From Candidatus Moraniibacteriota bacterium (GTDB lineage: Bacteria > Patescibacteriota > Minisyncoccia > Moranbacterales > UBA1568), in contig JAQTYF010000001.1 in the NCBI GenBank assembly GCA_028688415.1, positions 10,385 to 74,384 of the forward strand: 64,000 bases of DNA, given 5' to 3'. Shown here piece by piece: positions 4,256 through 62,843 of the stretch; position 1 is the first letter of the stretch; each line of letters opens with the position of its first letter. The notes below the pieces were generated by a model. It was not told where the DNA came from and did not search any database. It worked only from the letters and a program-made list of their open reading frames with translations. The translations under genes were made by a program, and so were the position numbers.

Positions 4256-4267
4256 TCACATTTTTTT

Positions 4268-5540: not shown

Positions 5541-5559
5541 ATTCTATCACTGATAGAAT
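5541..5559. promoter_or_regulatory. Perfect 19-bp palindrome ATTCTATCACTGATAGAAT (tetO-like core CTATCACTGATAG), a candidate operator just downstream of the secG promoter
   Basis: Exact self-complementarity over 19 bp, about 30 nt downstream of the predicted -10. Confidence 0.4.
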
Positions 5560-5581
5560 ATCTTTATTTCTTATCAATCTT

Positions 5582-5806
5582 ATGAGAAGTTTCCTTATCG
5601 TGCAGGCCGTGGTCGCCATTTTGCTTACCCTCTCTATCCTTCTTCAGAATCGAGGCTCTGGTCTCGGGAGTACTTTTGGGGGTGATTTTGGTGGATATTA
5701 TACCAAAAGAGGTATGGAAAAATTCCTTATTTACGCGACAGTCGTTTTGGCGATTATTTTTTTCGCACTTGCCATTCTCAATGTCTGGCTCCCACTTCAT
5801 TCTTAA
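5582..5806 (+). CDS. secG: Preprotein translocase subunit SecG
   Basis: 74 aa with two TM segments and the SecG loop motif LLQNRGSGLGSTFGG (compare LLQxGKGxxxGxxFGG). Confidence 0.75.
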   Translation: MRSFLIVQAVVAILLTLSILLQNRGSGLGSTFGGDFGGYYTKRGMEKFLIYATVVLAIIFFALAILNVWLPLHS

Positions 5807-5878
5807 TATACGCGTATTCGTATCTTTGAATCCATCCTCATCTTAAAGAGACTCAAATGGGCACGTCTGTTCCAGGCT

Positions 5879-7522: not shown

Positions 7523-7628
7523 TTTTCAATTTTCAAACAATGATTGAATTTTAAAATTTCGAAATTGGTTCATTGGAAATTGTTTAGAAATTAGAAATTG
7601 AAAATTAAAAACATTAAAAAATATTCTT

Positions 7629-8666
7629 ATGTTAAATCCTCTCGACACCTATAATTTTCGTCAGATGATCATTGATAGTCCTCTCCAGTTTCGGACAGGA
7701 TTTGATCTCGCCAAGGATATAAAAATACCAGGAACATTTACTTCTATTATGATTTCTGGTATGGGGGGCTCGGCACTTCCGGGTAATATTTTCCGTACCT
7801 ATCTCGACAATGCGTTCATTCAAGAAAAAAAAGATCCGACCAAGGAATCTCCCATTGCCGTGTATCAGAATCGTTCATACAGTCTTCCTCGAGAAGCTTT
7901 CAAAGATTGTCTCAATTTTATTTGTTCGTATTCTGGTAATACCGAAGAGACGATTGCTTCTTTTGAAGAAGCTCTCAAGAATAATTTGCCTTGCATCGGA
8001 CTTTCGAGTGGAGGAAAGATAGAAGAGATGTGTAAAGCAAATGATGTCCCTCATATCAAACTTCCTATTCCTTTTCCAGGATTTCAGCCTCGTGTCGGCA
8101 CTGGATATTTTTTCAGTACGATGCTTCAGGTACTCGTGAATCAGAGAATGACTCGTGATACGACTACAGAGCTTTTGCAGGAGGTAGAGCTCATGCAGAC
8201 GAGAATCACCGATATCGAAGAACAAGGAAAGAATTTTGCCAAACAGGTCATCGGGAAAACGCCCGTGATATATACTACACCAGAATATCAGTCCGTAGCG
8301 ATGGTGTGGAAAATCAAGTTCAATGAGAATGCCAAGACACCAGCTTTTTGGAATTTTTTTCCAGAACTGAATCACAACGAAATGGTAGGATGGACTCTTC
8401 CTCAGGGAAAGTTTATTGTCTTTATGCTTCGTGATACACTTGCACATCCACGCATTCTGAAACGTTTTGAAATAACCGCAGGACTGCTCCGTGAGAAGGG
8501 TGTCGAAGTGGTGACAGTCGATATGGTAGGAGAAACTGTTTTTGACAAGATATTTTCGAGTATTCTCTTGGCTGATTTCACTTCATATTTTCTCGCTCTG
8601 GAATACGGAGAGAATCCGACGCCTGTCGATATGGTGGAATCGCTCAAAGAACTTTTGGTAGCGTAA
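7629..8666 (+). CDS. Bifunctional phosphoglucose/phosphomannose isomerase (SIS-domain, archaeal/bacterial PGI-PMI type)
   Basis: SIS motif IMISGMGGSALPGNIF and overall length and pattern of the PGI/PMI family. Adjacent to manC. Confidence 0.6.
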   Translation: MLNPLDTYNFRQMIIDSPLQFRTGFDLAKDIKIPGTFTSIMISGMGGSALPGNIFRTYLDNAFIQEKKDPTKESPIAVYQNRSYSLPREAFKDCLNFICSYSGNTEETIASFEEALKNNLPCIGLSSGGKIEEMCKANDVPHIKLPIPFPGFQPRVGTGYFFSTMLQVLVNQRMTRDTTTELLQEVELMQTRITDIEEQGKNFAKQVIGKTPVIYTTPEYQSVAMVWKIKFNENAKTPAFWNFFPELNHNEMVGWTLPQGKFIVFMLRDTLAHPRILKRFEITAGLLREKGVEVVTVDMVGETVFDKIFSSILLADFTSYFLALEYGENPTPVDMVESLKELLVA

Positions 8667-8684
8667 CAATTTGAATGATATTCT

Positions 8685-9713
8685 ATGTATAGTGTTATTC
8701 TCTGTGGTGGATCTGGGACGCGTCTGTGGCCGATGAGTCGAAAAAATCTCCCGAAACAATTTTTGAAACTCTATGGAGACAAGTCGCTCCTTCAGGAAAC
8801 GTTTGATCGTATCCATAAACTCCTCCCTGTCGAACACATATTTTTTGTAACCAACAAAGACAACGCTTCATATGTGCTCAGTCAGATACGAAAAAGGGAT
8901 CGGAAATTTTCAGAAAAAAATATTATCATAGAACCATCTGCTCGCAATACTGCACCAGCGATCGCTCTTGCGATGAAATACTTGACTGAGAAAATGAAAA
9001 TGAATGTTTCAGAGAATGTCCTCTTCCTCCCATCAGACCATTACATTGGTCAGGAAACCGCTTATATGGATATCGTGCGAAAGATAGCTGATTTGAAAGA
9101 TGATATCATCGGGACCATCGGTATCGTCCCGACCAAACCAGAAACAGGGTATGGGTATATTCGTCGAGGCAAAGAATCCCGAGGCATCTTTCCTGTTCTC
9201 GAATTCAAAGAAAAACCGGATCTAAAAACAGCTAAGAAATATCTCGCATCCGGGAAATATCTCTGGAACTCGGGTATGTATTTTTTCAACGCACGCACGT
9301 TCTTCTCAGAACTCTCGCTCTGTGCTCCTGAAATAGCAGGTTTTTTCACGGGGACATATAGAGAGATTTTGAAAAAATACAAAACTATTCCATCTGTCTC
9401 TATCGATTATGCATTATCAGAGAAGTCAGAAAAAGTAGGCGTCATCGCAGGGAATTTTGGGTGGAGTGATATTGGATCTTTCGATAGTTTGGCGGATGTC
9501 TTGGGACACAATTCTGCGATGCGACATATCGGTATTGATTCCAAGAATGTATTTACCTACAGTACTGAAAATCGGTTGATAACGACGATTGGGGTAGAGG
9601 ATCTCATCATTGTCGAAACCAAAGGAAGCATTCTCGTATGTAAGAGGGGACGAGCAGAAGATGTAAAAAAAATCGTCGAAAAATTGAAAGAAATCGAGCC
9701 TACAGAGCTGTAA
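8685..9713 (+). CDS. manC: Mannose-1-phosphate guanylyltransferase (GDP-mannose pyrophosphorylase)
   Basis: Nucleotidyltransferase N-terminus ILCGGSGTRLWPMSRKNLPKQF, size 342 aa. Operon partner of the PGI/PMI gene. Confidence 0.7.
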   Translation: MYSVILCGGSGTRLWPMSRKNLPKQFLKLYGDKSLLQETFDRIHKLLPVEHIFFVTNKDNASYVLSQIRKRDRKFSEKNIIIEPSARNTAPAIALAMKYLTEKMKMNVSENVLFLPSDHYIGQETAYMDIVRKIADLKDDIIGTIGIVPTKPETGYGYIRRGKESRGIFPVLEFKEKPDLKTAKKYLASGKYLWNSGMYFFNARTFFSELSLCAPEIAGFFTGTYREILKKYKTIPSVSIDYALSEKSEKVGVIAGNFGWSDIGSFDSLADVLGHNSAMRHIGIDSKNVFTYSTENRLITTIGVEDLIIVETKGSILVCKRGRAEDVKKIVEKLKEIEPTEL

Positions 9714-9748: not shown

Positions 9749-9905
9749 CCCAAAAGAATTTTTTCAGCATCCTTTCCACACTGACTGAGCAAGAGCTCTC
9801 AGATCGAAAAAAGAAGTTGTGATTGTGTAGATTGGGGACTGCTTTTTTCGTAATACTGAGAGCTCTTGTGAGAGGTGGAACGATGATGAAAAATTGGCTT
9901 TTGGG
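9749..9905 (+). mobile_element. MITE-like element, family 1 copy A (about 157 bp) with terminal inverted repeats CCCAAAAGAATTTTT / AAAAATTGGCTTTTGGG and an internal GAGCAAGAGCTCTCAG / CTGAGAGCTCTTGTGAG palindrome
   Basis: Near-identical reverse-complement copy at 26710-26871. The ends are inverted repeats of each other and are shared with family 2 (49995-50144, 62693-62843). Confidence 0.65.
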
Positions 9906-10209: not shown

Positions 10210-10381
10210 CAACGTAAAAAGAGAACTTCTCCTCGTGAGAAGAGCATCTTTCGTAATAATTCATTCTTGTTGATGGCTAAAAAATACCTCAACAAGAAAT
10301 AATCAATCTCAAAGATATTTTCTTTTTGGCATCTTTTTCAAAGGTGGACAAAAACAGGGTATCAGAGAAAAAGTAAACAGT

Positions 10382-12493
10382 ATGCAGACGAATAATTCGT
10401 TTCAAAAAAACAGAGACACTGGTATATCAGCTCACACGAGCCATACCAATGGTGTTCTCGGAGGAGGAGAAAAACCTCCTGTCGCAGGTGCGTTCGAGGG
10501 TATCGTCGCACATGCCCAGGCGCCACGTGCGACACAGAATAAATCATACGGACATGTCGCGTCCAAGCAGACTTCATTCGTGAAGCCTCTTTCGTTGTCG
10601 ACACAAAAGTCAGGTACCTCTGTCTCTAAAGGACAGTCAGCCTCAAATAAGTCGAGCCTAGGCGGTCCAGCTTCGAATAAACCAAGTCTGAACAGGCAAC
10701 CGATGAAAAAATCTGGAGTGCCAGGGAAAAAGAGTGGTCAGAAAAACAATCGTCGTTTTCCGATGCCAATGAAGAGTCGACTCGAATCGACGCACAACGG
10801 TGTCTCGGTTCCTGTACTCGGTGAAAAACGTCTCCGTATCATCCCTCTTGGTGGTCAGGAAGAAGTTGGTCGCAATATGACTGTGTTCGAATACGGCAAC
10901 GATATTGTGATTGTTGATATGGGACTTCAGTTTCCAGAAGAAGATATGCCAGGTATTGACTATATCATTCCGAATGCCAATTATCTGAAGGGGAAAGAAA
11001 AAAATATCCGTGGTGTCGTATTTACCCATGGTCACCTCGATCATATTGGTGCTGCGCCACTCCTCTTGAAACAACTTGGATATCCGCCAGTCGTGTCTCG
11101 TGACTTGACTTTGGCGCTTATCAAACACAAGGTTGACGATCAAGAAAAAGGTGCTGCGAGCCGTCTCAAGATGGTACGTATCAAAACCGTTGAAGACCGT
11201 ATCAAACTCGGCGCATTCGAAGCACGTTTCTTCGATGTCGAGCATTCTATTATGGACGCTATCGGAATTGTACTTCTGACACCAGTCGGATCAGTTATTC
11301 ATATGGGTGACTGGACAATTGCCAATGATCCTCTCGAAGAAAAAGAAATTTCCTACAAACATCTCGCCAATCTGCCACGACCGACGATACTCATGCTTGA
11401 AAGTTTGGGAGCACTGAAGAAAGGACTTCCACCGTCAGAACAGGAAGTGCATCAGAATTTGAAGAACCTCATTCGTACGGTTCCTGGACGTTTGATTATT
11501 GGTACGTTTGCTTCACAGATTCGTCGTATCAGCTACCTCATCGAATATGCAGAACAGTTGGGGAAGAAAGTGGCACTTGAGGGGTACAGTATGAAAATGA
11601 ACATCGAAGTCGCCAAGGAACTCGGGTATATCAAAGTGAGAAAAGATACACTCATCACCGTCAATGATATTCATAAATACGCCGATAACCAAGTTGTCGT
11701 CATTTGTACAGGTGCGCAAGGTGAGCTCAATGCGGCTCTCTCTCGTATCGTCACTGACAATCATCGATTCATCAAACTCCAGAAGAATGACACAATCGTG
11801 TTTTCCTCCTCAGTTATTCCAGGCAACGAACGAACGATCCAACGTCTGAAAGACAACCTCTATCGCAAGTGTGATAACATCATCCACAGTGATATTATGG
11901 AAATTCACATCGGTGGTCACTCGACTGCACAGGGGATGGAGGAGATGCTCCGTCAGGTACAGCCGACGTATTTCTTGCCGGTGTATGCCAATCATTATTT
12001 CTTGAAAGAAGCTGCCAAGATCGCCTTCCGAATGGGCTTTCCAGAGAAAAATGTTTTTGTGCTCGACAACGGTGGAGTATTCGAAGTCGGTGAGAACAAT
12101 TTTTCAGCTGTTTTGAAAGAAAAAGCAGATACGAGTTACGTCTTCATCGACGGTCTCGGTGTTGGAGATATCGGACATGTTGTGCTTCGCGATCGCCAGG
12201 TGCTTGCTCAGGATGGTATGGTAGTGATTACTGCTATTATCGATTCCAAGACCAAAACTGCTGTCGGAAATATCCAGATCACTTCACGCGGATTCATCCA
12301 TGTGAAAGAAAACTTTGATCTCGTCAATGAGACGAAACGCAAAGTAGAAAAAATCATTCGAGAAAATACTTCGAAAGACGTGTCTCTTGATGCTGATCTC
12401 ATCCGAAATCAAATCCGTGATATTATCGGTCAGTTCCTCTTTACCAAGACGGAACGTCGCCCGATGGTCCTCCCAGTGGTCATCGAAGTCTAA
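10382..12493 (+). CDS. rnj: Ribonuclease J (metallo-beta-lactamase/beta-CASP RNase) with a ~130-aa low-complexity S/K/G-rich N-terminal extension
   Basis: HxHxDH motif (THGHLDHIGAAP), beta-CASP region, and RNase J-like C-terminal domain. 703 aa. Confidence 0.8.
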   Translation: MQTNNSFQKNRDTGISAHTSHTNGVLGGGEKPPVAGAFEGIVAHAQAPRATQNKSYGHVASKQTSFVKPLSLSTQKSGTSVSKGQSASNKSSLGGPASNKPSLNRQPMKKSGVPGKKSGQKNNRRFPMPMKSRLESTHNGVSVPVLGEKRLRIIPLGGQEEVGRNMTVFEYGNDIVIVDMGLQFPEEDMPGIDYIIPNANYLKGKEKNIRGVVFTHGHLDHIGAAPLLLKQLGYPPVVSRDLTLALIKHKVDDQEKGAASRLKMVRIKTVEDRIKLGAFEARFFDVEHSIMDAIGIVLLTPVGSVIHMGDWTIANDPLEEKEISYKHLANLPRPTILMLESLGALKKGLPPSEQEVHQNLKNLIRTVPGRLIIGTFASQIRRISYLIEYAEQLGKKVALEGYSMKMNIEVAKELGYIKVRKDTLITVNDIHKYADNQVVVICTGAQGELNAALSRIVTDNHRFIKLQKNDTIVFSSSVIPGNERTIQRLKDNLYRKCDNIIHSDIMEIHIGGHSTAQGMEEMLRQVQPTYFLPVYANHYFLKEAAKIAFRMGFPEKNVFVLDNGGVFEVGENNFSAVLKEKADTSYVFIDGLGVGDIGHVVLRDRQVLAQDGMVVITAIIDSKTKTAVGNIQITSRGFIHVKENFDLVNETKRKVEKIIRENTSKDVSLDADLIRNQIRDIIGQFLFTKTERRPMVLPVVIEV

Positions 12494-12569
12494 TAGAGAC
12501 AATAGGTATCAAAAAAAACTCTCCTGCCATCTGGTTGGAGAGTTTTTTTGTTTTTTCAGGCTTTCTGCT

Positions 12570-14153
12570 CTACTGTATATATTCAAACTTCTCTCGAGAA
12601 AATTGTTTTTTGAGAATCATTCTTTGTACTTTGCCTGTCGATGTCCTCGGTAATTTTTCAGGAGAGAGCGAGAGAAGGTATTTTGGTGCCTCGTATGCTC
12701 CGATGAGGGGTGTATGAGAGAGAATGTTTTTTTTGAGCTTCTTGAATGCCTGATCGGTATCGACATGTTTTTTCCAACAAATGATGGCAGCTACTTCTTC
12801 CCCGTATCGATCATCGACGACACCTATGACATAGACCTGATCGATATCTACCGATACCTTCTTTAGTCTATTTTCTACAGCAGTAGGAGAGATGTTCACG
12901 CCTCCCTTGATGATGATTTCTTTTTTCCTTCCTTTCAAAAAGAAGAACTTTTTTTTATCGATAATTTTGAAATATCCGATATCGCCCGTCAAGAAATATC
13001 CGTTTTGAAAAGCAGGTTCCTTACCTACGTATCCTCGCATAACAGCATCACCTCTTACGATCAATTCTCCCTCTTCATTTTCACCGAGATGTTCTCCTGT
13101 ATTGCTAGCAATCTGGACATCTGCCCACGGCATCGATATACCGATAGAGTTTTCTTCCACAATCTTTTTGTGGAGAGCGGAAGAGAGTGAGAGAGGGACG
13201 CCAGTCACCCGTAGCGCTGTTTCTGTCTGTCCATAACCTTGGTAAAGGGGAATATGGTATGTATCTTCGAATTCGAGGGCACTGTGCGCTATGACTGGGG
13301 CGGAACCGATCTGAATTCTATTGAGCAGGATATCGTTTTTTACGTGCATAAACTCTGATTCACGTACCAATTGATCATATACGATTGATTGAACGATTGA
13401 TGTGATGGTGGATTGTGTTTTACTTACTTGATTCCAGAAGTTTGAGCTGGAATATGTCGGAGGAATAGCAATAGATCCTCCAGAAAGGAGTATAGAGAGA
13501 CAAAATGTTGTCGAATTGATGTGATGAAGAGGAAGATTGACGAGGAAGCGATCAGTATCTCTGATATCGAACCATCGCCGAATACCATCAGCATTGACAA
13601 TCAAATTTTGTAGAGAAAGTTGCGCTCCCTTAGGATGTCCAGTCGTTCCAGAAGTAAAGAGAATGAGAGCAATGTGATCTGGATTCTTCTGTAATATTGG
13701 CAGTTCTTTCTCTGACCGATAAAGAAATCCAGAAAAGATTTCGATACGCACTCCTTCAATCGATGCCTGATCGATTGATTTTTGTATTTTTTCTTGAACG
13801 ATGAGATATTTTGATTGAGTGATGCGTATTTTGTAGGCATAGAGTTCGCCAATGTCATTTTTCGTATCGAGAGGAATGGTGATGATACCCATACTCCATG
13901 CCGACCAACTGAGTATGAGGAGATCGATCGAATTGGTAAAAGCGAGAGCAATACAATCTTTTTCTTTGAGACCAAGGGTCTGTAGATAATGGAGAGCACG
14001 CTCCATTTTTTCGAGCAGTGCTTCATACGAGAGAGTTTCGAGAAGAGACCCGTCTGATGAACAGGACATGAGGGCAATGTTGCGCGGTGATTTTTTAGCT
14101 ACTTCAGAAACGAAAAGGTAGATATTGCTGATTGGATGGAGAGGAATGTTCAT
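12570..14153 (-). CDS. AMP-dependent synthetase/ligase (acyl-CoA or acyl-ACP ligase, FAAL-like candidate starter-loading enzyme). Start taken at MNIPLHP (14153); the ORF extends to 14225.
   Basis: AMP-binding signature LFTSGTTGHPKGAQLS and adenylation-domain architecture. Divergently arranged next to the PKS-like operon. Confidence 0.8.
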   Translation of the reverse strand: MNIPLHPISNIYLFVSEVAKKSPRNIALMSCSSDGSLLETLSYEALLEKMERALHYLQTLGLKEKDCIALAFTNSIDLLILSWSAWSMGIITIPLDTKNDIGELYAYKIRITQSKYLIVQEKIQKSIDQASIEGVRIEIFSGFLYRSEKELPILQKNPDHIALILFTSGTTGHPKGAQLSLQNLIVNADGIRRWFDIRDTDRFLVNLPLHHINSTTFCLSILLSGGSIAIPPTYSSSNFWNQVSKTQSTITSIVQSIVYDQLVRESEFMHVKNDILLNRIQIGSAPVIAHSALEFEDTYHIPLYQGYGQTETALRVTGVPLSLSSALHKKIVEENSIGISMPWADVQIASNTGEHLGENEEGELIVRGDAVMRGYVGKEPAFQNGYFLTGDIGYFKIIDKKKFFFLKGRKKEIIIKGGVNISPTAVENRLKKVSVDIDQVYVIGVVDDRYGEEVAAIICWKKHVDTDQAFKKLKKNILSHTPLIGAYEAPKYLLSLSPEKLPRTSTGKVQRMILKKQFSREKFEYIQ

Positions 14154-26400: not shown

Positions 26401-26557
26401 AGGGATCCTTTCTCTATCAGTTGAGGCTTGTTGTTAAGGAACGATTTTTGAATATGAAAAAACCACCCTAGAAGGTGGTTTTGAAAAAAATATGAATCCA
26501 AGAGAGGGGAGTGAATATTCTCTTTTGGAGTATTTCTTTTTTCATATGTTGATAGTA

Positions 26558-26655
26558 GTATACTCCCACACCAACCTTTTCGCAAGTATAAAAATTTGTA
26601 TGTCAAAAGTTTGTTTGTTCTCGGTAGTTGAAGGTTGGTGTGGGAGTATACTCCT
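26558..26655. repeat. Long hairpin: perfect 22-bp inverted repeat AGTATACTCCCACACCAACCTT ... AAGGTTGGTGTGGGAGTATACT separated by about 52 nt
   Basis: Exact complementarity of the two arms. Lies next to MITE copy B. Confidence 0.6.
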
Positions 26656-26709
26656 AAAAAACAAATTGGCAATATTCTGTCAAGAGGAGTCTTTTGAAGA
26701 AGAGTCGTT

Positions 26710-26871
26710 GTGACCTATTAAAAGCCAATTTTTCATCATCGTTCCACCTCTCACAAGAGCTCTCAGTAAAACGAAAAAAGAAGCCTCCAATCAACACACT
26801 CTTAGCTTCTTTTTTCGATCTGAGAGCTCTTGCTCAGTCAGAGTGGAAAGGATGCTGAGAAAATTCTTTTG
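26710..26871 (-). mobile_element. MITE-like element, family 1 copy B (inverted relative to copy A at 9749-9905)
   Basis: The reverse complement aligns over about 160 bp to copy A, including the internal GAGAGCTCTTG palindrome and the TTCTTTTTTCGATCTGAGAGCTCTTGCTCAGTCAG block. Confidence 0.65.
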
Positions 26872-41687: not shown

Positions 41688-41716
41688 TAAAATGTTTGGA
41701 AATTTGTACTTTTTTT

Positions 41717-41801
41717 AAAAATAGGAAAAAAACTTTTTTAGAAAACCATTGGGCGAAACTGCTTCGGACGGGTTTATCTAAAAAGTTTTTTTCCTATTTT
41801 T
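41717..41801. ncRNA. Structured element, copy 1: 24-bp AT-rich perfect stem enclosing a conserved 38-nt core GAAAACCATTGGGCGAAACTGCTTCGGACGGGTTTATC
   Basis: Left arm AAAAATAGGAAAAAAACTTTTTTA and right arm TAAAAAGTTTTTTTCCTATTTTT. The same core with a different but still complementary stem occurs at 48221-48297. Confidence 0.55.
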
Positions 41802-41819
41802 AAAAAACCATTGCTCTCT

Positions 41820-42932
41820 CTATTTTCTGATATAATTCATCCCTCCGATATTACGTATGAGACCTTTGATCTCGAGGAGACCGAGAGTGGAGTTGAGAGA
41901 CGATGTTTCTAGTCTAACTGCTTTGACAATCTTGTCAACGTGGAGTGGTTCATGAGAGAGAATGGAAAGTATCGTATTCTCTTCTTTTGAGAGAGAACTT
42001 TGTTCTTGGAAAAGAGTCTCTTGTGATGAGAGAATATTTTTTTCTGGAAGAGGAAATTCTTCGAGAATGTCTGAAACAGAAGTCACTATTTTCGCGCCAG
42101 ACTTGATGAGGTGATTGGTGCCGACAGAGAAAGGAGAAAAGATGGATCCTGGTACAGCAAATACTTCACGATTATAATCAAGGGCGAGATGAGCTGTGAT
42201 GAGTGCCCCGCTCCTCTCCGGTGCTTCGATGACGATGGTGCCGAGACACATTCCAGCAACGATACGATTACGAGCGGGGAATGTTCCGACATTGACTTCG
42301 GTCCCAGGAGCGTATTCGGAAATGATTGCTCCAGTACGGATGATATTCCGAGCAAGAGGGAGATGTGTCTGAGGAGCGATAGAAAAATCATCGACACCAC
42401 CAGCGAGCACCGCTATTGTCTCGGCACCGGCTTCGAGTGTGGCTTTGTGAGCAATAGAGTCGATGCCAAATGCCAATCCAGAAACAATGACGTATCCTGC
42501 CTGAGCCAGATCGCAAGCAAGTTGGTGGGCCACTTGTTTTCCGTAATCAGTACATTTACGTGAGCCGACGATTGCAATGAGTGATTTTTCTTTCCAATCA
42601 TAATTCCCACGCACAAAAAGAATCATGGGCGCGTCTGGAATTTCTTTGAGTAATCGAGGGTATTTTTTATCGGTAAACGCGAGAGTGTCGATACCTTGAT
42701 CGCTGATTTTTTGCCATTCCTTATCAGGATCAAAAGTATTTCTCCCGTGAAGGATGTCGGCTACCGTTTTTGGTCCGAGGCCTTTGATGTTGAGGAGGGT
42801 TTCTTGAGAGGCTTCCCAGAGTGCTTCGACACTGCCAAAATGTTCGAGGAGTTCTCGGAGAGTTCTGTTTCCGAGACCAGGTACGAGACTGAGTGTATAG
42901 AGGAGAGCTGATGAACGTTGTGTTATATCCAT
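41820..42932 (-). CDS. dprA: DNA processing protein DprA (Smf)
   Basis: N-terminal SAM/HhH region (LSLVPGLGNRTLRELLEHFGS...), Rossmann-like DprA domain (IVGSRKCTDYG...VSGLAFGIDSIAH), C-terminal winged helix. Confidence 0.85.
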   Translation of the reverse strand: MDITQRSSALLYTLSLVPGLGNRTLRELLEHFGSVEALWEASQETLLNIKGLGPKTVADILHGRNTFDPDKEWQKISDQGIDTLAFTDKKYPRLLKEIPDAPMILFVRGNYDWKEKSLIAIVGSRKCTDYGKQVAHQLACDLAQAGYVIVSGLAFGIDSIAHKATLEAGAETIAVLAGGVDDFSIAPQTHLPLARNIIRTGAIISEYAPGTEVNVGTFPARNRIVAGMCLGTIVIEAPERSGALITAHLALDYNREVFAVPGSIFSPFSVGTNHLIKSGAKIVTSVSDILEEFPLPEKNILSSQETLFQEQSSLSKEENTILSILSHEPLHVDKIVKAVRLETSSLNSTLGLLEIKGLIRNIGGMNYIRK

Positions 42933-42965
42933 TTGTAGAATGAAGAAATATTTCTTAGAAAAAAA

Positions 42966-44603
42966 TTATTCTTTGTCTGGAAAAACATATCGTCCTGGTG
43001 CAATCAATCGTTTTGGATCAATTGATGTCTTGAGTATACTGGCGAGATGTGTAGAGCTAGGAGCGAGATCTTTGAGAAGATGCATTGATGAAAGACTGAG
43101 TCTATAGGGGATGTACCCCATTTTTTGCCCTGCTTGAAAAAGTTCTTCGTAACAACGCTTGGCACGCTCTGCATCCTCTGTGTCATTGAGTCGGAAGAGG
43201 ATAGGAACAGTCACGTCAAAGCAACGCGAGGAGAGACTAGTAAATGTCATAAGTGGCTCGATACCATTTTTTTCACAGATGTCCTGAATCATGCGAGCAC
43301 AAGCGCGGACATCAGAGGATTTGAAAGGGACCAGAGGAGAATACCAGTACAAACCGCAACCGTCACGAGCGGGATCGAGTGGTTTGCCTGTAGGCATATC
43401 AACACCCGATTTCCAGTAGGCGAGAGGGAGAGCGACCTCATTTGGTTTCCCGTGAAGTATTTCAAAAAGAGAAAGGAGAGAATCAATAGTACCAGAGAGA
43501 TGTCTTCCAAAATGTCCTGGAACAAGTTTGGCAAAAGAAGATGCTTGACGTATGAGGGCAGGTGAGAGAAATGTGAGATGTGAGACATGAGGACTGAGTG
43601 TTTCTTTGAGTATAGTCTTGGCTCCTTTGACGAGAGCCTTGTGTCCATAGATAGCACCGATACCAGTCCATGCAGTCACCTGATCAGCGTGCGCCATCAT
43701 ATCGATAATTTTTTGAGGAACAATAGATCCTATCATCGTACTCGTTTCCGGATAGGCTTCTTGCATAGAGAGTACTCGTCTCGCATTCATAATATTGAAT
43801 GATCCAGTGACTGTTCCTGTCAGACTGAGAGATTTCTGAAGAGCCTCGATGGCTTTTTCGAGGTCTGCTTCCTCATTCACACGGAAAAAAACGAGCTCGA
43901 CTTTCTCAGGAACAGGAGCGAGGACAAGCGTCATAGATGTAACAATGCCAAAATTTCCTTGTGAGAAGAGTCCATCGAGATACGGACCGATACCCCATTT
44001 GTGAAGACGATTGACTTCTACACCACCCATTTCATCGAGTGCTCGACGATAGAGTGATCCGTCTGGCAGTACTGCCTCGAGTGAAGTGATAGCAGAGAAA
44101 TGGTCTGCATAAGGAGTGATACCGAAACCTCTTTCGAGTGCATTGCCGACGATACTGCACGTAGGACCTCCTCCGTGTACTGGTACAAGAAACTGAGTTT
44201 TCTTTTTTCGAAGAAAATTATAGAGGTCTTTTTGTGTAACGCCTGGTTCGAGAGTGATGATACCAAGTACTGGATCGAAATTCGAGATTTCTTTCATGAG
44301 AGAGAGGTCTATGACAACGGCTTGTTCTGGAGGAAGACTGTTTCCGTAGCCCCAATTTTTCCCTCCACTCACAGGATAAACTGGAATGTTAAATTTTTGA
44401 GCAATCTCGACCACTCGAATTATATCGGCTGTTTTTTTACAGACGAGTGCCCCGAGGACAGTATAAGTTGTCGTAAAGGTTGTTTTCCCATATTTTTCTC
44501 TACTTTGTTCTTGATCGAGAACATTTCTTTTCCCAAGAATTTTCTGCCAATCAATGAAGGCTCTGTGCAATTCTTTTTCAAAAGATGTGAGATGAAACCC
44601 CAT
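42966..44603 (-). CDS. FAD-linked oxidase (FAD_binding_4 / PCMH-type flavoprotein dehydrogenase)
   Basis: FAD-binding N-terminal domain (ADIIRVVEIAQKFNIPVYPVSGGKNWGYGNS). 545 aa. Confidence 0.65.
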   Translation of the reverse strand: MGFHLTSFEKELHRAFIDWQKILGKRNVLDQEQSREKYGKTTFTTTYTVLGALVCKKTADIIRVVEIAQKFNIPVYPVSGGKNWGYGNSLPPEQAVVIDLSLMKEISNFDPVLGIITLEPGVTQKDLYNFLRKKKTQFLVPVHGGGPTCSIVGNALERGFGITPYADHFSAITSLEAVLPDGSLYRRALDEMGGVEVNRLHKWGIGPYLDGLFSQGNFGIVTSMTLVLAPVPEKVELVFFRVNEEADLEKAIEALQKSLSLTGTVTGSFNIMNARRVLSMQEAYPETSTMIGSIVPQKIIDMMAHADQVTAWTGIGAIYGHKALVKGAKTILKETLSPHVSHLTFLSPALIRQASSFAKLVPGHFGRHLSGTIDSLLSLFEILHGKPNEVALPLAYWKSGVDMPTGKPLDPARDGCGLYWYSPLVPFKSSDVRACARMIQDICEKNGIEPLMTFTSLSSRCFDVTVPILFRLNDTEDAERAKRCYEELFQAGQKMGYIPYRLSLSSMHLLKDLAPSSTHLASILKTSIDPKRLIAPGRYVFPDKE

Positions 44604-44818
44604 ATGTTTATTGAAAGTATTAAAAAGTATAGAGTACTTCTTTCTCTCTCATAGTATCATATATCGATAGAGAAGGAGAAACAAGTTTACTGTGTTATCG
44701 GGCAAGTGTCTTGTTTTGAAATGAGTTTAGTTTTAGAAATAAGGAAAACTTGCTTTATAAGAGGTTTTATCATACTCTATAAGAGTAAAAAACGAACATA
44801 AATGAAGAAAGGAAGTCT

Positions 44819-45046
44819 ATGGAAAAGTTGTTCTTTACCTTGCAAGAAAGGTTTCCTGAAACGAAAGAAGAAGTTCTTCGTTTTGCTCTGAATGTTTTTT
44901 TGTATCAACAAGAAAAGCAAACAGGAAACAAAGCCTCAGTCGACGATGCAACCGCTTTTTTTCGTCGATTCAATTCGAGCAATGACATTGCGTTATGGCT
45001 TCTCGATATTGATGTTGCCGTTCTCAGGGAAATAACCAAAAAATAA
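44819..45046 (+). CDS. Hypothetical small protein (75 aa)
   Basis: ORF with reasonable context upstream of the GGDEF-like gene. No motif. Confidence 0.3.
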   Translation: MEKLFFTLQERFPETKEEVLRFALNVFLYQQEKQTGNKASVDDATAFFRRFNSSNDIALWLLDIDVAVLREITKK

Positions 45047-45093
45047 GAGCGCTTCTGTTTTACACAACAGGAACGCTCTTTTTTCGAAAAAAT

Positions 45094-46245
45094 ATGAGTA
45101 ACGAATGGAAGCAAGGAGGGGAATATCCAATCGAAAGAATATCGAATGAACAAGAAGTTTCTCAAGATTCTCTTTCGAGTCTCATCGCACGACAATCAAA
45201 TCCTGAGCTTCTCAAAAAATACGAGGAGAGTTTACGTGATGTACAAAAAGTTCTTGAGGAAAATAATCGATTGCGACGTGAAGGAGAGGAACAGAAGAGA
45301 ACTATTCATGAACTCTCCTACGACAGTATTACAGACTTGAAGATTCGTTCATTATTTTATAAGCAGTTGAATACCCTCGTATCAGAGGAAATTGCTACTC
45401 TGTTCGGCGAAGATATCGCCATGTGGGAGACGCTTCCTCTTGATCAGCTCACTGAAAGAATTTTTAATATTGATATCTCAAACAGTGAAAACACATCCCT
45501 TGCCTTGCTCATGGGTGATGTCGCTTATCTTTCGCTCGCCAATACGAGTAATCATGCTCTCGGTGATGAGTTGTTGAAGAATATCGGGAAAGCTGGCAAG
45601 ACAACAAGCGAACTCTTTCCGGAATCAGCAGAGTTTTTTCGGTATGGTGGAGATGAAATAGTAGGTGTTCTCCGTGCAGAGAGTGAATCGGGTGTCAAAA
45701 ATATCGCTGACTCTTTTGAATCTGAGGTTTCTCAAACTCCATTTGCACATTTAGAAACACTTGGTATCACTCCCCATCTTCATATTGATATTGGAACATC
45801 TCGTTTTTTTGAGGGATTCTCTGCTTTCCGGAATCTCTTAGTGACCATACAAGAAGAAAATAAGAAACGTCAGTTAGCAGGAGAAGATCCTCTCGATATT
45901 CCTTGTGATGATCGCAGGAAAGTGCTCATCGATATGTGGCTCGGTATTGCTGATGAGAAATCTATCCTGCGAAAAGCGGAGAGACGTCTGCCAACACTCA
46001 AATTTTATAAAGAAAACACGCCTGATGTCTACACGGGTATTATCGGTTCTATGAGAAAAGGGGCTCTCAATGTCACTGATGAAGAACTTGATGTCTTGAG
46101 CAATGATCTTGCCTCCATCAGGCAATTTATTGTAGAAAAGAGGCTCCTCACAAAAACAGAAAGTGAGAAAACCTTATCGAGACGCAATGCTCTTGTGAAC
46201 GGAATTATCTATCGTATTGCAACAGACGAATTTCTTTCTGAGTAA
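45094..46245 (+). CDS. GGDEF-domain protein with degenerate signature (RYGGDEI) and N-terminal coiled coil
   Basis: GGDEF-like blocks DSITDLKIRSLFYKQL (D.lTgL.NR), LALLMGDVAYLSLANTSNHALGDELL (llLDlDhFK.iND..GH..GD.vL) and FFRYGGDEIVGVL (R.GGDEF..ll). Confidence 0.55.
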   Translation: MSNEWKQGGEYPIERISNEQEVSQDSLSSLIARQSNPELLKKYEESLRDVQKVLEENNRLRREGEEQKRTIHELSYDSITDLKIRSLFYKQLNTLVSEEIATLFGEDIAMWETLPLDQLTERIFNIDISNSENTSLALLMGDVAYLSLANTSNHALGDELLKNIGKAGKTTSELFPESAEFFRYGGDEIVGVLRAESESGVKNIADSFESEVSQTPFAHLETLGITPHLHIDIGTSRFFEGFSAFRNLLVTIQEENKKRQLAGEDPLDIPCDDRRKVLIDMWLGIADEKSILRKAERRLPTLKFYKENTPDVYTGIIGSMRKGALNVTDEELDVLSNDLASIRQFIVEKRLLTKTESEKTLSRRNALVNGIIYRIATDEFLSE

Positions 46246-46320
46246 TTTCTGAAGAAGGAAAAATGTTATCCTCTGTCTGGACAAAAAATGATTCTTTCGT
46301 TACAATAACTTCATTCGTTA

Positions 46321-46394
46321 TGGGCCGTTAGCTCAGTTGGTTAGAGCACCGCATTTGCAATGCGGGGGTCGTCGGTTCGAATCCGACACGGTCC
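46321..46394 (+). tRNA. tRNA-Ala (anticodon TGC), with G3:U70
   Basis: GGGCCGTTAGCTCAGTTGGTTAGAGCACCGCATTTGCAATGCGGGGGTCGTCGGTTCGAATCCGACACGGTCCA. Confidence 0.9.
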
Positions 46395-46492
46395 ACTCTG
46401 TTTTCCTCTTGATTTTTTTTTCATTTGTGATATCATTTGAAATACCATTCTATGAATAGGAGGTGTTTTGGATTGAGAACAAGGGAAAATAT

Positions 46493-46566
46493 GGGTGATT
46501 AGCTCAGTTGGTTAGAGCGCTACACTGATAATGTAGAGGTCCCAAGTTCGAATCTTGGATCACCCA
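46493..46566 (+). tRNA. tRNA-Ile (anticodon GAT)
   Basis: GGGTGATTAGCTCAGTTGGTTAGAGCGCTACACTGATAATGTAGAGGTCCCAAGTTCGAATCTTGGATCACCCA. Confidence 0.9.
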
Positions 46567-46692
46567 CCCACGAAAAATGTGAAACACATATCGTGGCAAG
46601 ACGGGGATTGCTCGGCTTGTCGAAGAGTATGCTGTATGATGATTGAGTAAGGTTTATAGTTTGCTACGTGGCGAACAGAGTGAGTTTTACGT

Positions 46693-46766
46693 AGCGGGGT
46701 AGAGCAGTCTGGCAGCTCGTCTGGCTCATAACCAGAAGGTCGGTGGTTCGAATCCACCCCCCGCAA
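46693..46766 (+). tRNA. Initiator tRNA-fMet (anticodon CAT)
   Basis: AGCGGGGTAGAGCAGTCTGGCAGCTCGTCTGGCTCATAACCAGAAGGTCGGTGGTTCGAATCCACCCCCCGCAA. Near-identity to E. coli tRNA-fMet, including the unpaired 1:72 position. Confidence 0.85.
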
Positions 46767-47125
46767 CACACGAAAGAATTGAGTGAGTAAGGAGGAAGAC
46801 ACAAACGATTTTGTGTCTGTGTGGATGAGAAGGGATGTTTTCTTGAAAAGAAAAATCCCAGGCTCCTCGAACGAATCCACCCCCCGCAACACACGAAAGA
46901 ATTGAGTGAGTAAGGAGGAAGACACAAACGATTTTGTATCTGTGTGGATGAGAAGGGATGTTTTCTTGAAAAGAAAAATCCCAGGCTCCTCGAACGAATC
47001 CACCCCCCGCAACAAACGGAACAAAGTGAAGTGCAGAGAGGAGGGAATGAGCGAACTGCTTCGCTCATGTGTGGATGAGAAGGGTCGAAGTTCCGCGACG
47101 ACCCAGGCTTCTCGAACGAATCCAC
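46749..47125 (+). repeat. Tandem array (about 3.1 copies of a 123-bp unit). Every unit begins with the 3' end of tRNA-fMet (CGAATCCACCCCCCGCAACA). Copies 1 and 2 are almost identical; copy 3 diverged internally.
   Basis: Period 123 bp: CGAATCCAC at 46749, 46872, 46995 and 47117. Unit = tRNA 3' end + CACGAAAGAATTGAGTGAGTAAGGAGGAAGACACAAACGATTTTGTGTCTGTGTGGATGAGAAGGGATGTTTTCTTGAAAAGAAAAATCCCAGGCTCCT. Confidence 0.8.
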
Positions 47126-47188
47126 TTGAGTAGTGAAGAAAAATATAATGAAGAGCGAGTGTTCATCGTTTTGTTATGAACTATCTCT

Positions 47189-47262
47189 GGCAGGGTAGCT
47201 CAGTTGGTTAGAGCATAGCCTTCATAAGGCTGGGGTCGCGAGTTCGAATCTCGCCCCTGCTA
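47189..47262 (+). tRNA. tRNA-Met (anticodon CAT; elongator or possibly tRNA-Ile2/lysidine type)
   Basis: GGCAGGGTAGCTCAGTTGGTTAGAGCATAGCCTTCATAAGGCTGGGGTCGCGAGTTCGAATCTCGCCCCTGCTA. Confidence 0.75.
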
Positions 47263-47283
47263 CACAGAAACAAGAAAATACAC

Positions 47284-47357
47284 GGGGGCGTAGCTCAGCT
47301 GGTTAGAGCGACTGCCTGTCACGCAGTAGGTCGCCGGTTCGAGTCCGGTCGCTCCCG
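47284..47357 (+). tRNA. tRNA-Asp (anticodon GTC)
   Basis: GGGGGCGTAGCTCAGCTGGTTAGAGCGACTGCCTGTCACGCAGTAGGTCGCCGGTTCGAGTCCGGTCGCTCCCG. Confidence 0.85.
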
Positions 47358-47361
47358 CAGA

Positions 47362-47389
47362 GAAAAACACCCGCAAGGGTGTTTTTTTG
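47362..47389 (+). terminator. Rho-independent terminator ACACCC-GCAA-GGGTGT + T7 after the tRNA cluster
   Basis: 6-bp GC-rich stem, tetraloop, TTTTTTT. Confidence 0.7.
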
Positions 47390-47505
47390 TGGGCGATTGG
47401 CTCGAACGAGGAAGGGGGTCGGGGAAACGGGAGTTTCACCGTTGGCGGAGAGCAGGACTTTGTCCGCTGAGAACGGAGGCGTTCTCAGAGCGAAGCTGTT
47501 CGATT

Positions 47506-47524
47506 GTCCGGTCGCTCCCGCAGA
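47506..47524 (+). repeat. Direct repeat of the tRNA-Asp 3' end (GTCCGGTCGCTCCCGCAGA; extended match TTCGAKTGTCCGGTCGCTCCCGCAGA), an att-like scar 146 bp downstream of the tRNA
   Basis: Identical 19-mer at 47343-47361 (inside tRNA-Asp) and 47506-47524. The intervening ~145 bp are GC-rich compared with the rest of the window. Confidence 0.7.
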
Positions 47525-47556
47525 ATAAAGAACTTGGCCCTTGTGGCTGAGTTTTT

Positions 47557-48195
47557 TTGTATAAAAATTCTTTTGATGATACATTGAAAATCAATATGAA
47601 ACACGTATTCTCACAATTAGAAAAAAAGAGAAACACAAACACTCAATCACGTGAGCAGTTCCTTCTTCATGTTTGTTGCGCACCGTGTAGTATCGCGGTG
47701 ATTGATGAACTGGCGACAGAGTATGATCTCGTCGTGCTTTTCTATAATCCCAACATCCATCCGGAAGAGGAATATCTAAAACGGAAACGAGAAGTAGTCC
47801 GTGTGTGTGAAGAATGGAAAGTGCCGATGATCGATCATGATTATGATATTGAAAAATGGGAAAAAGATATACGAGGATTGGAAAATGAACCAGAAGGAGG
47901 GCTCCGTTGTGTCTCGTGTATCAGTATGCGACTTCTCCATACTGCAGAAATAGCTAAAGAAAAAAACATAGAGCTATTTGGTACGACGCTCACGATGGGA
48001 CGAAACAAGAGAGAGATAGTCATCACGCCTCTTGGAAAATCGGCAGGGGAGAAATATGGTAGAGAATATTATGTCGAAGACTGGAAAAAGAAAGGACGCG
48101 AAATAAAAGCACGGGCTATGGTGAAAGAACGGGACATCTATCGTCAAACGTACTGCGGATGCAAGTACTCGATACGTGTCCAGAGAGAGGAATAA
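47557..48195 (+). CDS. queH: Epoxyqueuosine reductase QueH (DUF208)
   Basis: Conserved HVCCAPCS motif and C-terminal CGCKYS. 212 aa. Confidence 0.75.
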   Translation: MYKNSFDDTLKINMKHVFSQLEKKRNTNTQSREQFLLHVCCAPCSIAVIDELATEYDLVVLFYNPNIHPEEEYLKRKREVVRVCEEWKVPMIDHDYDIEKWEKDIRGLENEPEGGLRCVSCISMRLLHTAEIAKEKNIELFGTTLTMGRNKREIVITPLGKSAGEKYGREYYVEDWKKKGREIKARAMVKERDIYRQTYCGCKYSIRVQREE

Positions 48196-48220
48196 GAAAA
48201 AATAACGAGAAATGAAAAAA

Positions 48221-48297
48221 GAATCTTCAAAGAATTTTTAGGAAACCATTGGGCGAAACTGCTTCGGACGGGTTTATCTAAAATTTTTTGAAGATTC
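48221..48297. ncRNA. Structured element, copy 2: stem GAATCTTCAAAGAATTTTTA / TAAAATTTTTTGAAGATTC enclosing the same conserved core GGAAACCATTGGGCGAAACTGCTTCGGACGGGTTTATC
   Basis: Core identical to copy 1 except 1 nt. The stem sequence is unrelated to copy 1 but remains complementary (covariation). Confidence 0.55.
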
Positions 48298-48330
48298 TTT
48301 TTATTCTATATAAGTAAAATACTATGGATT

Positions 48331-49950
48331 TTGTTTTTGTTGCGAAGTACGATGAGACAGGATAAGATAGGAATACATTTATTGATAAATATTATGACAC
48401 AGAGTGAAGCGCTGGCTCTCCTCAAAACAGGAGCAAATGTCTTCCTTACGGGTGAGGCGGGATCAGGAAAGACCTATACTATCAATCAATATACCGACTA
48501 TCTTCGTTCTCATGAGATCGATTTTGCTGTGACGGCTTCGACAGGTATCGCTGCGACACATATCCATGGTATGACGATACATTCGTGGAGTGGTATCGGT
48601 GTCCATCAAGAAGCGGACGAAGATGAACTCAAACACATTGCAGAGAATCGCTATGTCGCGAAACGTATCAAAAGAGCCAAGGTACTCATCATTGATGAGG
48701 TATCGATGCTTGATGGAAAAGTTTTGACACTCGTCGAACGGGTGTGTCGCAAGGCGCGAAAACTACGATTGCCGTTTGGAGGACTGCAGGTGGTGCTTGT
48801 GGGAGATTTTTTTCAGTTGCCACCAATAGCTAAAAAAGAAACAGCAATAGAATTTGCTTTTGATTCAGATGCATGGCAGGGATCGATGCCAATCGTGTGT
48901 TATCTCACGGAACAACACCGTCAGGAAGATAGTAAATTTTTGGATATTCTTTCGGCTATTCGGAATAATACGTTTGATGAAATGCACTTTGAAAGTTTGA
49001 GCGAACGGATTATATCACACGAAGAATTGCCGGACGATATGACGCGTCTGTTTTCTCATAATACCAATGTCGATACGATCAATACGAAAGAATTGCAAAA
49101 ACTCCCAGGGAAAACAAAACTCTTTGTGATGGCAGCACGTGGCCCAGAAACACTGACCGATGCACTCATCCGCGGGTGTCTCTCTCCGGAACGTCTCGAA
49201 CTCAAAGAGGGAGCAGCGGTGATGTTTACCAAGAACAATGCGAATCAGGGTTTCGTCAACGGAACACTCGGTACCGTCATCGGGTTTGATACGACAACTC
49301 ATTATCCGATTGTGAGAACATCGAGCGGGACACATATCGAGACAGAGCCAATGGAGTGGACGATTGCAGAGGGGGATGAAATATTTGCCAAGATCACTCA
49401 GATACCACTCCGTCTCGCCTGGGCAATGACGATTCACAAGAGCCAGGGAGTGAGTCTTGATGCTGCAGTAATCGACCTCTCACAAACGTTCGAATATGGT
49501 CAGGGATATGTTGCTCTGTCACGAGTACGTACACTCTCAGGTATCCATCTCCTCGGTGTGAACGCACGAGCGTTTCAGGTCCATCCACTCGTTTCTGAAA
49601 AAGATGAACAATTTCGTCGTACTTCTGAGACTGCGAGAGAAGAATATCGACAATTTTCGAAAGAGAGAGTCGAAGAAATGGAAAAGAATTTTATTGTGTT
49701 GTGCGAAGGAAAACATCAGATCAAAAAACAGAAGAGTGTGAAGAAAAAAAAGACAGTATCAGTCGGAAAATCATTGGAGGAAATCCGCGAGAAACATCCG
49801 AAAGCATACGCGAAATGGACCACTGAGGAAGATGAAAAACTACGAAAATTATGGAACAAAGGAACGCAAGTCCTCGCACTCACCGAGGTATTTGGCCGTA
49901 AAAAAGGAGCTATCACATCACGTCTCAAAAAATTATTGCTTCTCCACTAG
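48331..49950 (+). CDS. Pif1/RecD-family ATP-dependent DNA helicase (AAA_30 / UvrD_C_2 type) with a basic C-terminal tail. Start may be the downstream MTQSEALALL (48394).
   Basis: Walker A LTGEAGSGKTYTI, Walker B VLIIDEVSMLD, motif GDFFQLPP, C-terminal helicase motif TIHKSQGVSLD. Confidence 0.75.
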   Translation: MFLLRSTMRQDKIGIHLLINIMTQSEALALLKTGANVFLTGEAGSGKTYTINQYTDYLRSHEIDFAVTASTGIAATHIHGMTIHSWSGIGVHQEADEDELKHIAENRYVAKRIKRAKVLIIDEVSMLDGKVLTLVERVCRKARKLRLPFGGLQVVLVGDFFQLPPIAKKETAIEFAFDSDAWQGSMPIVCYLTEQHRQEDSKFLDILSAIRNNTFDEMHFESLSERIISHEELPDDMTRLFSHNTNVDTINTKELQKLPGKTKLFVMAARGPETLTDALIRGCLSPERLELKEGAAVMFTKNNANQGFVNGTLGTVIGFDTTTHYPIVRTSSGTHIETEPMEWTIAEGDEIFAKITQIPLRLAWAMTIHKSQGVSLDAAVIDLSQTFEYGQGYVALSRVRTLSGIHLLGVNARAFQVHPLVSEKDEQFRRTSETAREEYRQFSKERVEEMEKNFIVLCEGKHQIKKQKSVKKKKTVSVGKSLEEIREKHPKAYAKWTTEEDEKLRKLWNKGTQVLALTEVFGRKKGAITSRLKKLLLLH

Positions 49951-49994: not shown

Positions 49995-50144
49995 CCCAAA
50001 AGAATATTTTGTTGGTTGCTCCACTTGTTTGAGACGGCTTTCTTTCTTCTAAAAATTTCCTATGGATGCCGTAGAGTGAGGGAATATTTTTAGCAAAGAA
50101 AGAAGGCTTTCGAGGCTGGAGCAGAAACAAAAGATTGCTTTTGG
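49995..50144 (+). mobile_element. MITE-like element, family 2 copy 1 (about 150 bp). TIRs CCCAAAAGAATATTTTGTT / AACAAAAGATTGCTTTTGGG.
   Basis: Near-identical direct copy at 62693-62843. Terminal sequences shared with family 1. Followed by a TTGACA-17-TATGCT promoter-like sequence (50190-50218). Confidence 0.65.
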
Positions 50145-62692: not shown

Positions 62693-62843
62693 CCAAAAAG
62701 AATATTTTGTTGGTTGCTCCACTTGTTTGAGACGGCTTTCTTTCTTCTAAAAATTTCCTATGGATGCCGTAGAGTGAGGGAATATTTTTAGCAAAGAAAG
62801 AAGGCTTTCGAGGCTGGAGCAGAAACAAAAGATTGCTTTTTGG
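62693..62843 (+). mobile_element. MITE-like element, family 2 copy 2 (direct repeat of 49995-50144)
   Basis: About 97% identity over about 150 bp with copy 1. Confidence 0.65.

Follow-up and report, generated by a model that had tools for sequence, protein, structure and literature searches.

A conserved hairpin apex on unrelated arms in two intergenic spacers of Candidatus Moranbacteria: a possible family of extragenic palindromic elements

Among the described systems closest to the elements reported here are the REP, REPIN and BIME sequences of bacteria (PMC3116915, PMC3333891, PMC2817692): short intergenic palindromes that form hairpins, often lie past stop codons, differ in presence and absence between strains and act at the level of DNA. 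In a REPIN the arms, which are REPs, are conserved while the spacer between them varies, and REPs have copy numbers in the tens to hundreds, at many loci. Here we analyse a 64,000-nt stretch of a Candidatus Moraniibacteriota genome (contig JAQTYF010000001.1), called the window below; all coordinates without a locus name are window positions. The window holds two hairpins that resemble these palindromes in kind, but the conservation is turned around: the core at the tip is conserved, the arms differ beyond a 7-bp junction, and elements of this type occupy two spacers in the 225 kb of sequence, from 8 or more lineages, that were searched. We found no description of the family in Rfam or in the searchable literature, which gave no described palindromic repeats of the Candidate Phyla Radiation (CPR)/Patescibacteria, and we regard it as an extragenic palindrome with an inverted conservation logic.

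An earlier note, made from the letters of the window alone, had drawn attention to a 38-nt core shared by two long inverted repeats. This observation holds: the two 38-mers differ at one base (A at 41742, G at 48242), and an identical 36-nt string, AAACCATTGGGCGAAACTGCTTCGGACGGGTTTATC, occurs in two exact copies on the plus strand (41743-41778 and 48243-48278). In 100 dinucleotide shuffles no match to the 36-nt string was found, even with up to three mismatches allowed. The cores do lie within stems that are nearly self-complementary. In copy 1 the arms (41711-41747 and 41771-41807) are 37 nt long and 89% complementary, in copy 2 (48216-48247 and 48271-48302) they are 32 nt long and 84% complementary, and the complete copies (41711-41807 and 48216-48302) are the two longest inverted repeats of the window. 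Both strands of each copy are predicted to form one long hairpin as RNA or as DNA, with fold z-scores of -6.5 to -9 for either strand and either set of parameters. Without its arms the core folds no better than shuffled sequence (z about -0.8), so the stability of the hairpin is supplied by the arms.

The placement of both copies between genes also agrees with the gene coordinates. Copy 1 is found between the stop of dprA (41820) and the start of topA (41681), both on the minus strand, and copy 2 between the stop of queH (48195) and the start of a pif1-type helicase gene (48394), both on the plus strand. Each begins 12-25 nt past the stop codon of dprA or queH, and copy 1 ends 29 nt from the ATG of topA. 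Since both cores are on the plus strand while the two gene pairs run in opposite directions, the same core strand is antisense to dprA and topA at copy 1 and sense to queH and the helicase gene at copy 2. Upstream of the helicase gene, and some 35 nt beyond the right arm of copy 2, there is a promoter-like TTGCGA-17 nt-TAAGAT (48340-48368); it is kept in the window and in the loci L001, L006 and L007, and its score (8/12 matches) is just under the threshold of the promoter scanner.

To follow the family in relatives, 185,579 GTDB genomes (one genome per species), metagenomes and viral contigs were scanned with exact 20-22-mers, and orthologous loci were retrieved via DprA, helicase and TopA homologues. 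In GTDB the exact scan gave one further locus, L001, from another Candidatus Moranbacteria metagenome-assembled genome (MAG), and in the metagenomes it gave the same organism twice more (L002 and L005) together with two GC-rich chance matches. Viral contigs held no match, even with a degenerate family signature, and phage and plasmid records searched with BLAST gave only sub-significant matches of about 25 nt. L001 is the orthologous queH-helicase spacer (78% amino-acid identity for the helicase, 86% for QueH). Its core and junction are identical to those of the window, the core is flipped with respect to the genes, and the arms have a third, unrelated sequence.

Together with the window, the relatives hold eight distinct elements with four core variants (A, A', B and B') and six arm sets. 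The spacing from junction to junction is exactly 36 nt in every element, and all eight are confined to two spacers: dprA to topA (locus 1) and queH to pif1 helicase (locus 2). Further copies with further unrelated arms thus bear out the recurrent hairpin architecture that the earlier note had proposed, and in these additional copies the stems are not parts of one longer repeat. The search of related CPR genomes for the core that it had suggested gave copies at orthologous loci in Moranbacteria relatives, with none found outside the two spacers. Throughout the 225 kb, the pattern TTTAG-N36-CTAAA matches these elements only, and a covariance model built from six elements recovers the known copies only. 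Run on the window with filters off, the model gives the two copies 98-99 bits and the next match, a generic hairpin, 21 bits. This hairpin (26553-26656) has 26-bp arms, 96% complementary, and a 52-nt loop, without the core or junction of the family.

The orientation of the core relative to the genes is not fixed, and not all lineages have the element. At locus 1 the window carries core A in orientation (-), and L011/L012, with a DprA 99% identical to that of the window, carry A(+) with a new arm and about 80 nt of extra spacer. The element is absent from L006 (DprA 88%) and from L013, L014, L007, L018 and L010. Other core variants are seen in L015 (DprA 73%), which has A', GGAACC...AAATTGC...GGTTCAT, in orientation (+); in L005/L002 (DprA 70%), which have core B, in L005 in orientation (-); and in L024, the sister of L005, which has B'(+), flipped relative to L005 and with outer arms partly decayed. 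At locus 2 the window has A(+), and L001, L002, L005, L007, L020 and L021 have A(-). No hairpin is present there in L006, L018 and L024; the spacer of L006 is 65 nt long and keeps only the conserved promoter-proximal part. In total the core is (+) relative to gene direction in four elements and (-) in three, with flips at both loci: between species (window and L001), within a species (window and L011) and between sister lineages (L005 and L024). That orientation is set by the direction of replication was considered and ruled out, as L011 is flipped within the same species as the window.

How the arms change can be seen within this species. Over 4695 nt L011/L012 and the window are 98.2% identical without gaps, and the homology stops exactly at the stop codon of dprA; past this point L011 differs from the window in spacer, arm and core orientation alike. 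Such a break at 98.2% identity indicates that whole arms were replaced in one step, and not by gradual compensatory substitution. The earlier note had taken a conserved loop on covarying stems as the classic signature of a selected hairpin, a reading that does not survive the finding that stem and spacer are swapped whole between strains this similar. When the L011 spacer is compared with the element-free spacer of L018, homology is lost gradually past the first 70 nt or so, and no sharp insertion boundary is seen.

The core is conserved far more strongly. Between the window species and the L001/L005 species fourfold-degenerate sites are 34% identical, i.e. saturated, and still core A with its junctions is identical at 51/51 positions (core 36/36; P < 1e-10). 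B and B' are identical at 30/36 positions, compared with 44% at fourfold sites. In a tree of DprA, window and L011 are nested among the element-free L006, L013, L014, L007 and L018 (clade II), and L015, L005 and L024 belong to another clade (clade I). Judged from this topology, a gain in the window lineage is more parsimonious than three or more losses. Further, A', which comes from clade I, is 92% identical to A of clade II, 64% identical to B' and less to B of its own clade (A and B share 53%), so the core tree conflicts with the DprA (species) tree.

The structure was derived by hand on a junction-anchored, ungapped alignment of five elements. From base to tip it consists of an outer stem, a bulged T, the junction helix, a 5-bp inner helix, an AT bulge, an 8-bp apical helix and a 5-nt loop with the consensus AYYKC; in type A the apical helix is broken by a 2x2 mismatch. 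Paired cells make up 93.9% in this alignment, compared with 77.9% in shuffles and at most 63% when the partners are slid. Both partners have changed in 16 of the 36 pairs. Four of these pairs belong to the core, namely columns 26-58 (A-U to G-C in A' and B), 33-53, 34-52 and 38-48 (G-C to A-U in B). No variation is seen in the junction, in the CCAT with the bulge or in the apical stem C-R-AAA/TTT-Y-G. The hairpin is thus real, but it forms just as well on either strand and as DNA.

In copy 1 the left outer and inner arm, TTTTTTAAAAATAGGAAAAAAAC (41711-41733), is locus- and strain-specific, and its outer part, AAAAATAGG, is like an ordinary terminator stem. It is followed by the left junction TTTTTTAG (41734-41741), invariant in all elements, the 36-nt core of type A, AAAACCATTGGGCGAAACTGCTTCGGACGGGTTTAT (41742-41777, plus strand), the right junction CTAAAAA (41778-41784) and the right arm GTTTTTTTCCTATTTTTAAAAAA (41785-41807), complementary to 41711-41733. 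The core itself contains the inner helix AAACC/GGTTT, the AT bulge, the apical helix CGAA/TTCG and the loop ACTGC. Copy 2 is made up of the left arm AAAAAGAATCTTCAAAGAA (48216-48234), whose sequence is not related to that of the copy 1 arm, the left junction TTTTTAG (48235-48241), the 36-nt core of type A, GAAACC...GGGTTTAT (48242-48277, plus strand), the right junction CTAAAA (48278-48283) and the right arm TTTTTTGAAGATTCTTTTT (48284-48302), whose complementarity to 48216-48234 includes one G-T pair and leaves one T bulged. The core is bounded by the invariant junction (TTTTTAG left, CTAAAA right), and conservation reaches past the core that the earlier note had delimited. Its description of the stems as completely different is correct for the outer arms, which are unrelated, but not for the innermost 6-7 bp (TTTTTAG/CTAAAA), which are identical, nor for the next ~7 nt, which have a common A-rich pattern. 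The inner arm follows the shared degenerate pattern AAAAARN-TTTTT(T)AG, and in their outermost 9-14 bp the element arms look like the usual terminators of the window genome.

We tentatively interpret these elements as a lineage-restricted family of DNA-level extragenic palindromes in a Candidatus Moranbacteria subclade, in which the apex is the conserved, copied unit and the arms are secondary; our confidence in this falls a little short of even. The heritable unit would be the apex, that is TTTTTAG, exactly 36 nt and CTAAAA(A), about 50 nt in all, forming an imperfect hairpin of a 5-bp helix, the AT bulge, a 4-8-bp helix and the 5-nt loop AYYKC. It would act as DNA and independently of orientation, which is natural if a duplex or a cruciform is what is read, since a flip is then a 180-degree rotation of the same object. 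Copying or conversion may carry the apex from one resident spacer to the other and from species to species, presumably with a trans-acting DNA protein recognising it. Template switching during replication, at the inverted repeat of the apex, may homogenise the AT-rich arms, extend them from local sequence and flip the apex. If so, this would explain why every copy has arms that are different and yet near-perfect. If transcribed through, the 45-55-bp hairpin with its T-run would probably stop or insulate transcription in either orientation, which would be a side effect and not the cause of the conservation, and it is plausible that the palindromic module lies within, or has grown out of, terminator-like sequence.

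The mutational process called upon here is a described one. When a polymerase switches template between the arms of an inverted repeat, the arms are homogenised and the spacer is inverted (PMC8604942); the arms can also grow longer (PMC13100816), and the process occurs at quasipalindromes in E. coli (PMC7202029). By this route perfect, locus-specific arms and flipped cores could arise without selection, and on our analysis the perfect pairing appears more likely to come from such a process than from selection.

A number of points weigh against this interpretation. The sample is small (eight elements) and was ascertained by anchoring on the two loci, and to find eight elements in two spacers only is unusual for a selfish repeat and fits a locus-specific host function. 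No empty site that keeps the arms or the junction was found in relatives, no target-site duplication is separable from the junction itself, and the Pfam lists contain no transposase or recombinase gene within 10 kb of any locus. The DprA tree is a neighbour-joining tree of about 50 homologues without support values, and template switching as the putative source of the arms is taken from the literature. The topA-side half of the L011 allele was not recovered; a TopA-homologue search for it gave only the window's own strain. Finally, B and B' are conserved above neutral, so purifying selection, and not recent spread, could explain part of the conservation.

Selection is at the centre of the main alternative, which we judge unlikely but which deserves serious attention: a vertically inherited, cis-acting DNA site of the host that strong purifying selection maintains, whether as a cruciform or as an operator, pseudo-palindromic and bound by a dimeric protein. 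Situated just upstream of topA and the pif1 helicase gene, both encoding DNA-structure enzymes, it could be a supercoiling-responsive or protein-bound element, the AT-rich arms favouring extrusion. The restriction of the elements to the same two spacers across lineages agrees with this, as do the closeness of copy 1 to the topA ATG (29 nt) and of copy 2 to the conserved TTGCGA-17-TAAGAT (about 35 nt), and orientation independence is expected of duplex or cruciform recognition. Further, every comparison, type B included, shows core conservation far beyond the neutral level; the junction, the CCAT bulge and the apical stem are invariant while the helices show compensatory changes; and at locus 2 the spacer flanks of window and L001 can be weakly aligned (5', 13/19; 3', 62/91), which suggests that this spacer has a common origin. 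However, the element is dispensable, since L006 and L018 have it at neither locus and five lineages are without it at locus 1, and no binding protein was identified. The conflict between core tree and species tree speaks against vertical inheritance, identity at 51/51 positions at saturation exceeds that of known operators and of the tRNA regions at the same loci (77-92% identical), and the replacement of a spacer between strains is hard to square with a tightly selected regulatory architecture.

If instead the shape alone mattered, the elements would be plain bidirectional terminators or 3'-end RNA hairpins, and the shared core a loop copied by historical accident. The position of both copies shortly past a stop codon, the arms that open with an A-run and close with a T-run, the outer stems like those of ordinary terminators of this genome and the predicted RNA hairpin on both strands all point in this direction, and the earlier note had raised a similar idea, of bidirectional terminators with a recognition loop. 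The A- and T-runs are found at the arm bases on both strands, the T-run partly inside the stem. As terminators the elements are atypical, however. A consensus terminator scanner calls neither copy, the loop being too large and the G-C pairs fewer than 3. Ordinary terminators of the window genome are short, with an A-run, a GC-containing stem and a T-run; in place of a short G+C-rich stem with a 3-8-nt loop, the elements have AT-rich stems of 23-37 bp and a "loop" that is the 36-nt structured core. In element-free relatives these spacers have no hairpin, so termination there is not required, and selection on shape cannot explain the 51-nt identity, the fixed length of 36 nt and the conserved bulge and loop. 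We find this explanation improbable. An RNA with a function of its own, a strand-specific small RNA or a cis-regulatory RNA in which selection makes a variable basal stem covary, is the structured RNA of the earlier note and seems to us very improbable. It is true that the predicted hairpins are strong, that the core helices show compensatory changes and that the U-G pair at columns 33-53 is valid on the core(+) strand only. But the core faces either way, its orientation relative to transcription is effectively random (4 versus 3) with flips even within a species, there is no conserved promoter, the whole stem is replaced at 98% nucleotide identity, and the core alone is not stabler than shuffles. 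Nor does Rfam recognise the elements: at the gathering threshold the whole window gives only rRNA, tRNAs and a group I intron, and at E <= 10 the best match is Spy392987 with 32.9 bits (gathering score 47), the rest being generic long-hairpin microRNA precursors far below threshold.

It is also conceivable, though we give it little credence, that the apex of about 50 nt is a self-contained "hairpin-tip" module that a dedicated protein reads as a cruciform or hairpin, and that in Moranbacteria species it either homes specifically into the spacers upstream of topA and pif1 or serves as a supercoiling-sensing cruciform switch of genes for DNA topology and secondary structure. Flip/flop inversion and regeneration of the arms would then be built-in consequences of extrusion, and the homing version, if true, would make it the smallest site-specific mobile DNA known. 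The idea of a recognition loop or a protein-binding cruciform, which the earlier note had also put forward, stands. Taken as a whole, the observation in that note is confirmed and its interpretation is partly supported.

Several other known types of element were compared with the two copies. As in an inverton, a segment between inverted repeats is found in both orientations, but no recombinase gene lies within 10 kb. A 36-bp segment is too short to loop. The promoter scanner found no sigma-70 promoter in the core on either strand, and the idea of an invertible promoter was dropped, as neither strand of the core has a promoter-like site. By eye, no ribozyme, K-turn, T-loop, anticodon-loop or box C/D motif fits either strand of the core. 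The copies differ from CRISPR repeats in being only two, 6.5 kb apart and each inside its own palindrome. No insertion sequence (IS) end matches the core, which the earlier note had considered as a source. [quoted passage not shown] A TTTAG-N(0-30)-CTAAA junction, i.e. a short-loop "unoccupied" hairpin, does not occur anywhere in the sequence searched, and no RAYT gene was seen in the 64-kb window and its 10-kb flanks. GC skew is uniformly positive along the window and gives no association of the elements with an origin or terminus.

The spacers and their surroundings are variable in other ways as well. The element-free L006 (9745-9836), L007 (11102-11194) and L013 (1240-1330) have in common a different dprA-topA spacer of about 92 nt, "type X", with an imperfect hairpin of its own (AGTAGGAAGTAAG ... 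CTTACTACT followed by TTTT; loop about 30 nt). Yet another type is shared by L018 and the 5' part of L011, and the spacer is generally hypervariable. From 1 to 9070 L007 is 99.9% identical to L005 over helicase, queH and tRNAs, while its dprA-topA part (10268-13371) is only 74% identical to L005 and its DprA is 93% identical to that of L018; this mosaic may reflect recombination between lineages at the tRNA cluster, or the metagenomic contig may be a chimera. Between dprA and the tRNA cluster of the window there is a block of ~3.3 kb (42966-46245) coding for a FAD_binding_4 protein (545 aa), a 75-aa open reading frame and a weak-GGDEF protein (383 aa); L005/L007 lack this block, and L006 and L024 have part of it. 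In both species the two elements bracket the variable dprA-tRNA-queH segment.

Short-read contigs from several runs begin or end inside the 36-nt core (L011 at 4843, L012 at 2423, L017 at 1 and L023 at 1), and in L024 an NCBI scaffold is interrupted at the element by an N-gap whose flanks are duplicated (11193-11288). Assembly breaks of this kind are expected for a repeat that is present in both orientations, and they matter for the finishing of MAGs.

The window contains other repeats. A second, unrelated hairpin family is found at 9788-9869 and 26753-26833, with conserved stems (CAAGAGCTCTCAG ... CGAAAAAAG / CTTTTTTCG ... CTGAGAGCTCTTG) and different loops, a logic opposite to that of the apex-conserved elements. 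An identical segment of about 65-78 nt (TTCTTTCTT ctaaaaatttcctatggatgccgtagagtgagggaatatttttagca AAGAAAGAA) occurs at 50034-50111 and 62732-62809, 12.7 kb apart, and may belong to a longer duplication. The 23S rRNA gene at 1-2085 holds a group I intron at 169-379 (Rfam RF00028, 67.7 bits).

If copying of the apex with secondary arms is the correct reading, the elements would represent an "inside-out" class of bacterial extragenic palindromes, with a conserved apex and disposable arms, in the poorly studied, repeat-poor and ultra-small genomes of the CPR. They would also be a natural case in which perfect stem complementarity comes from mutation, by template switching, and not from selection, which calls for caution in covariation-based RNA discovery. 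The confinement upstream of topA and a Pif1 helicase gene and the 51-nt identity at saturation raise the question of which protein reads the hairpin.

Compared with known systems, the sequences are best read as REP- or MITE-like in kind with an inverted architecture. Like the MITEs Correia/NEMIS, RUP and BOX (PMC3184786), the elements are small, non-coding and bounded by inverted repeats, can face both ways, have a patchy distribution over strains and are present in identical copies in one genome. However, a unit of 50 nt with 7-bp terminal repeats is far below the usual size of a MITE, the arms are palindromic and copy-specific, and a target-site duplication, an empty site or a partner IS cannot be demonstrated. 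Insertion sequences that enter the loops of palindromes (IS1397 and others, with REPs as IS targets; PMC1525189) leave, with just the geometry of the present elements, a conserved insert at the tip of an existing hairpin between variable half-sites that are complementary to each other, but those are full IS with a transposase gene, and the 225 kb contain no unoccupied long AT-rich hairpins. The homogenisation and expansion of arms and the inversion of spacers in the template-switch dynamics of quasipalindromes (PMC8604942, PMC13100816, PMC7202029) and in small hairpin-associated inversions (in plastomes, PMC12371153) fit the perfect arms of each locus and the flipped cores; template switching is, however, a mutational process and not a family of elements, and it leaves a core frozen across species unexplained. 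Integron attC sites, finally, are hairpin recombination sites that vary in sequence and keep their structure, including extrahelical bases. In attC the outer R''/R' boxes (RYYYAAC / GTTRRRY) are conserved and the centre is variable, and an integrase and a cassette array are needed, whereas the elements described here show the opposite conservation and have housekeeping genes as neighbours.

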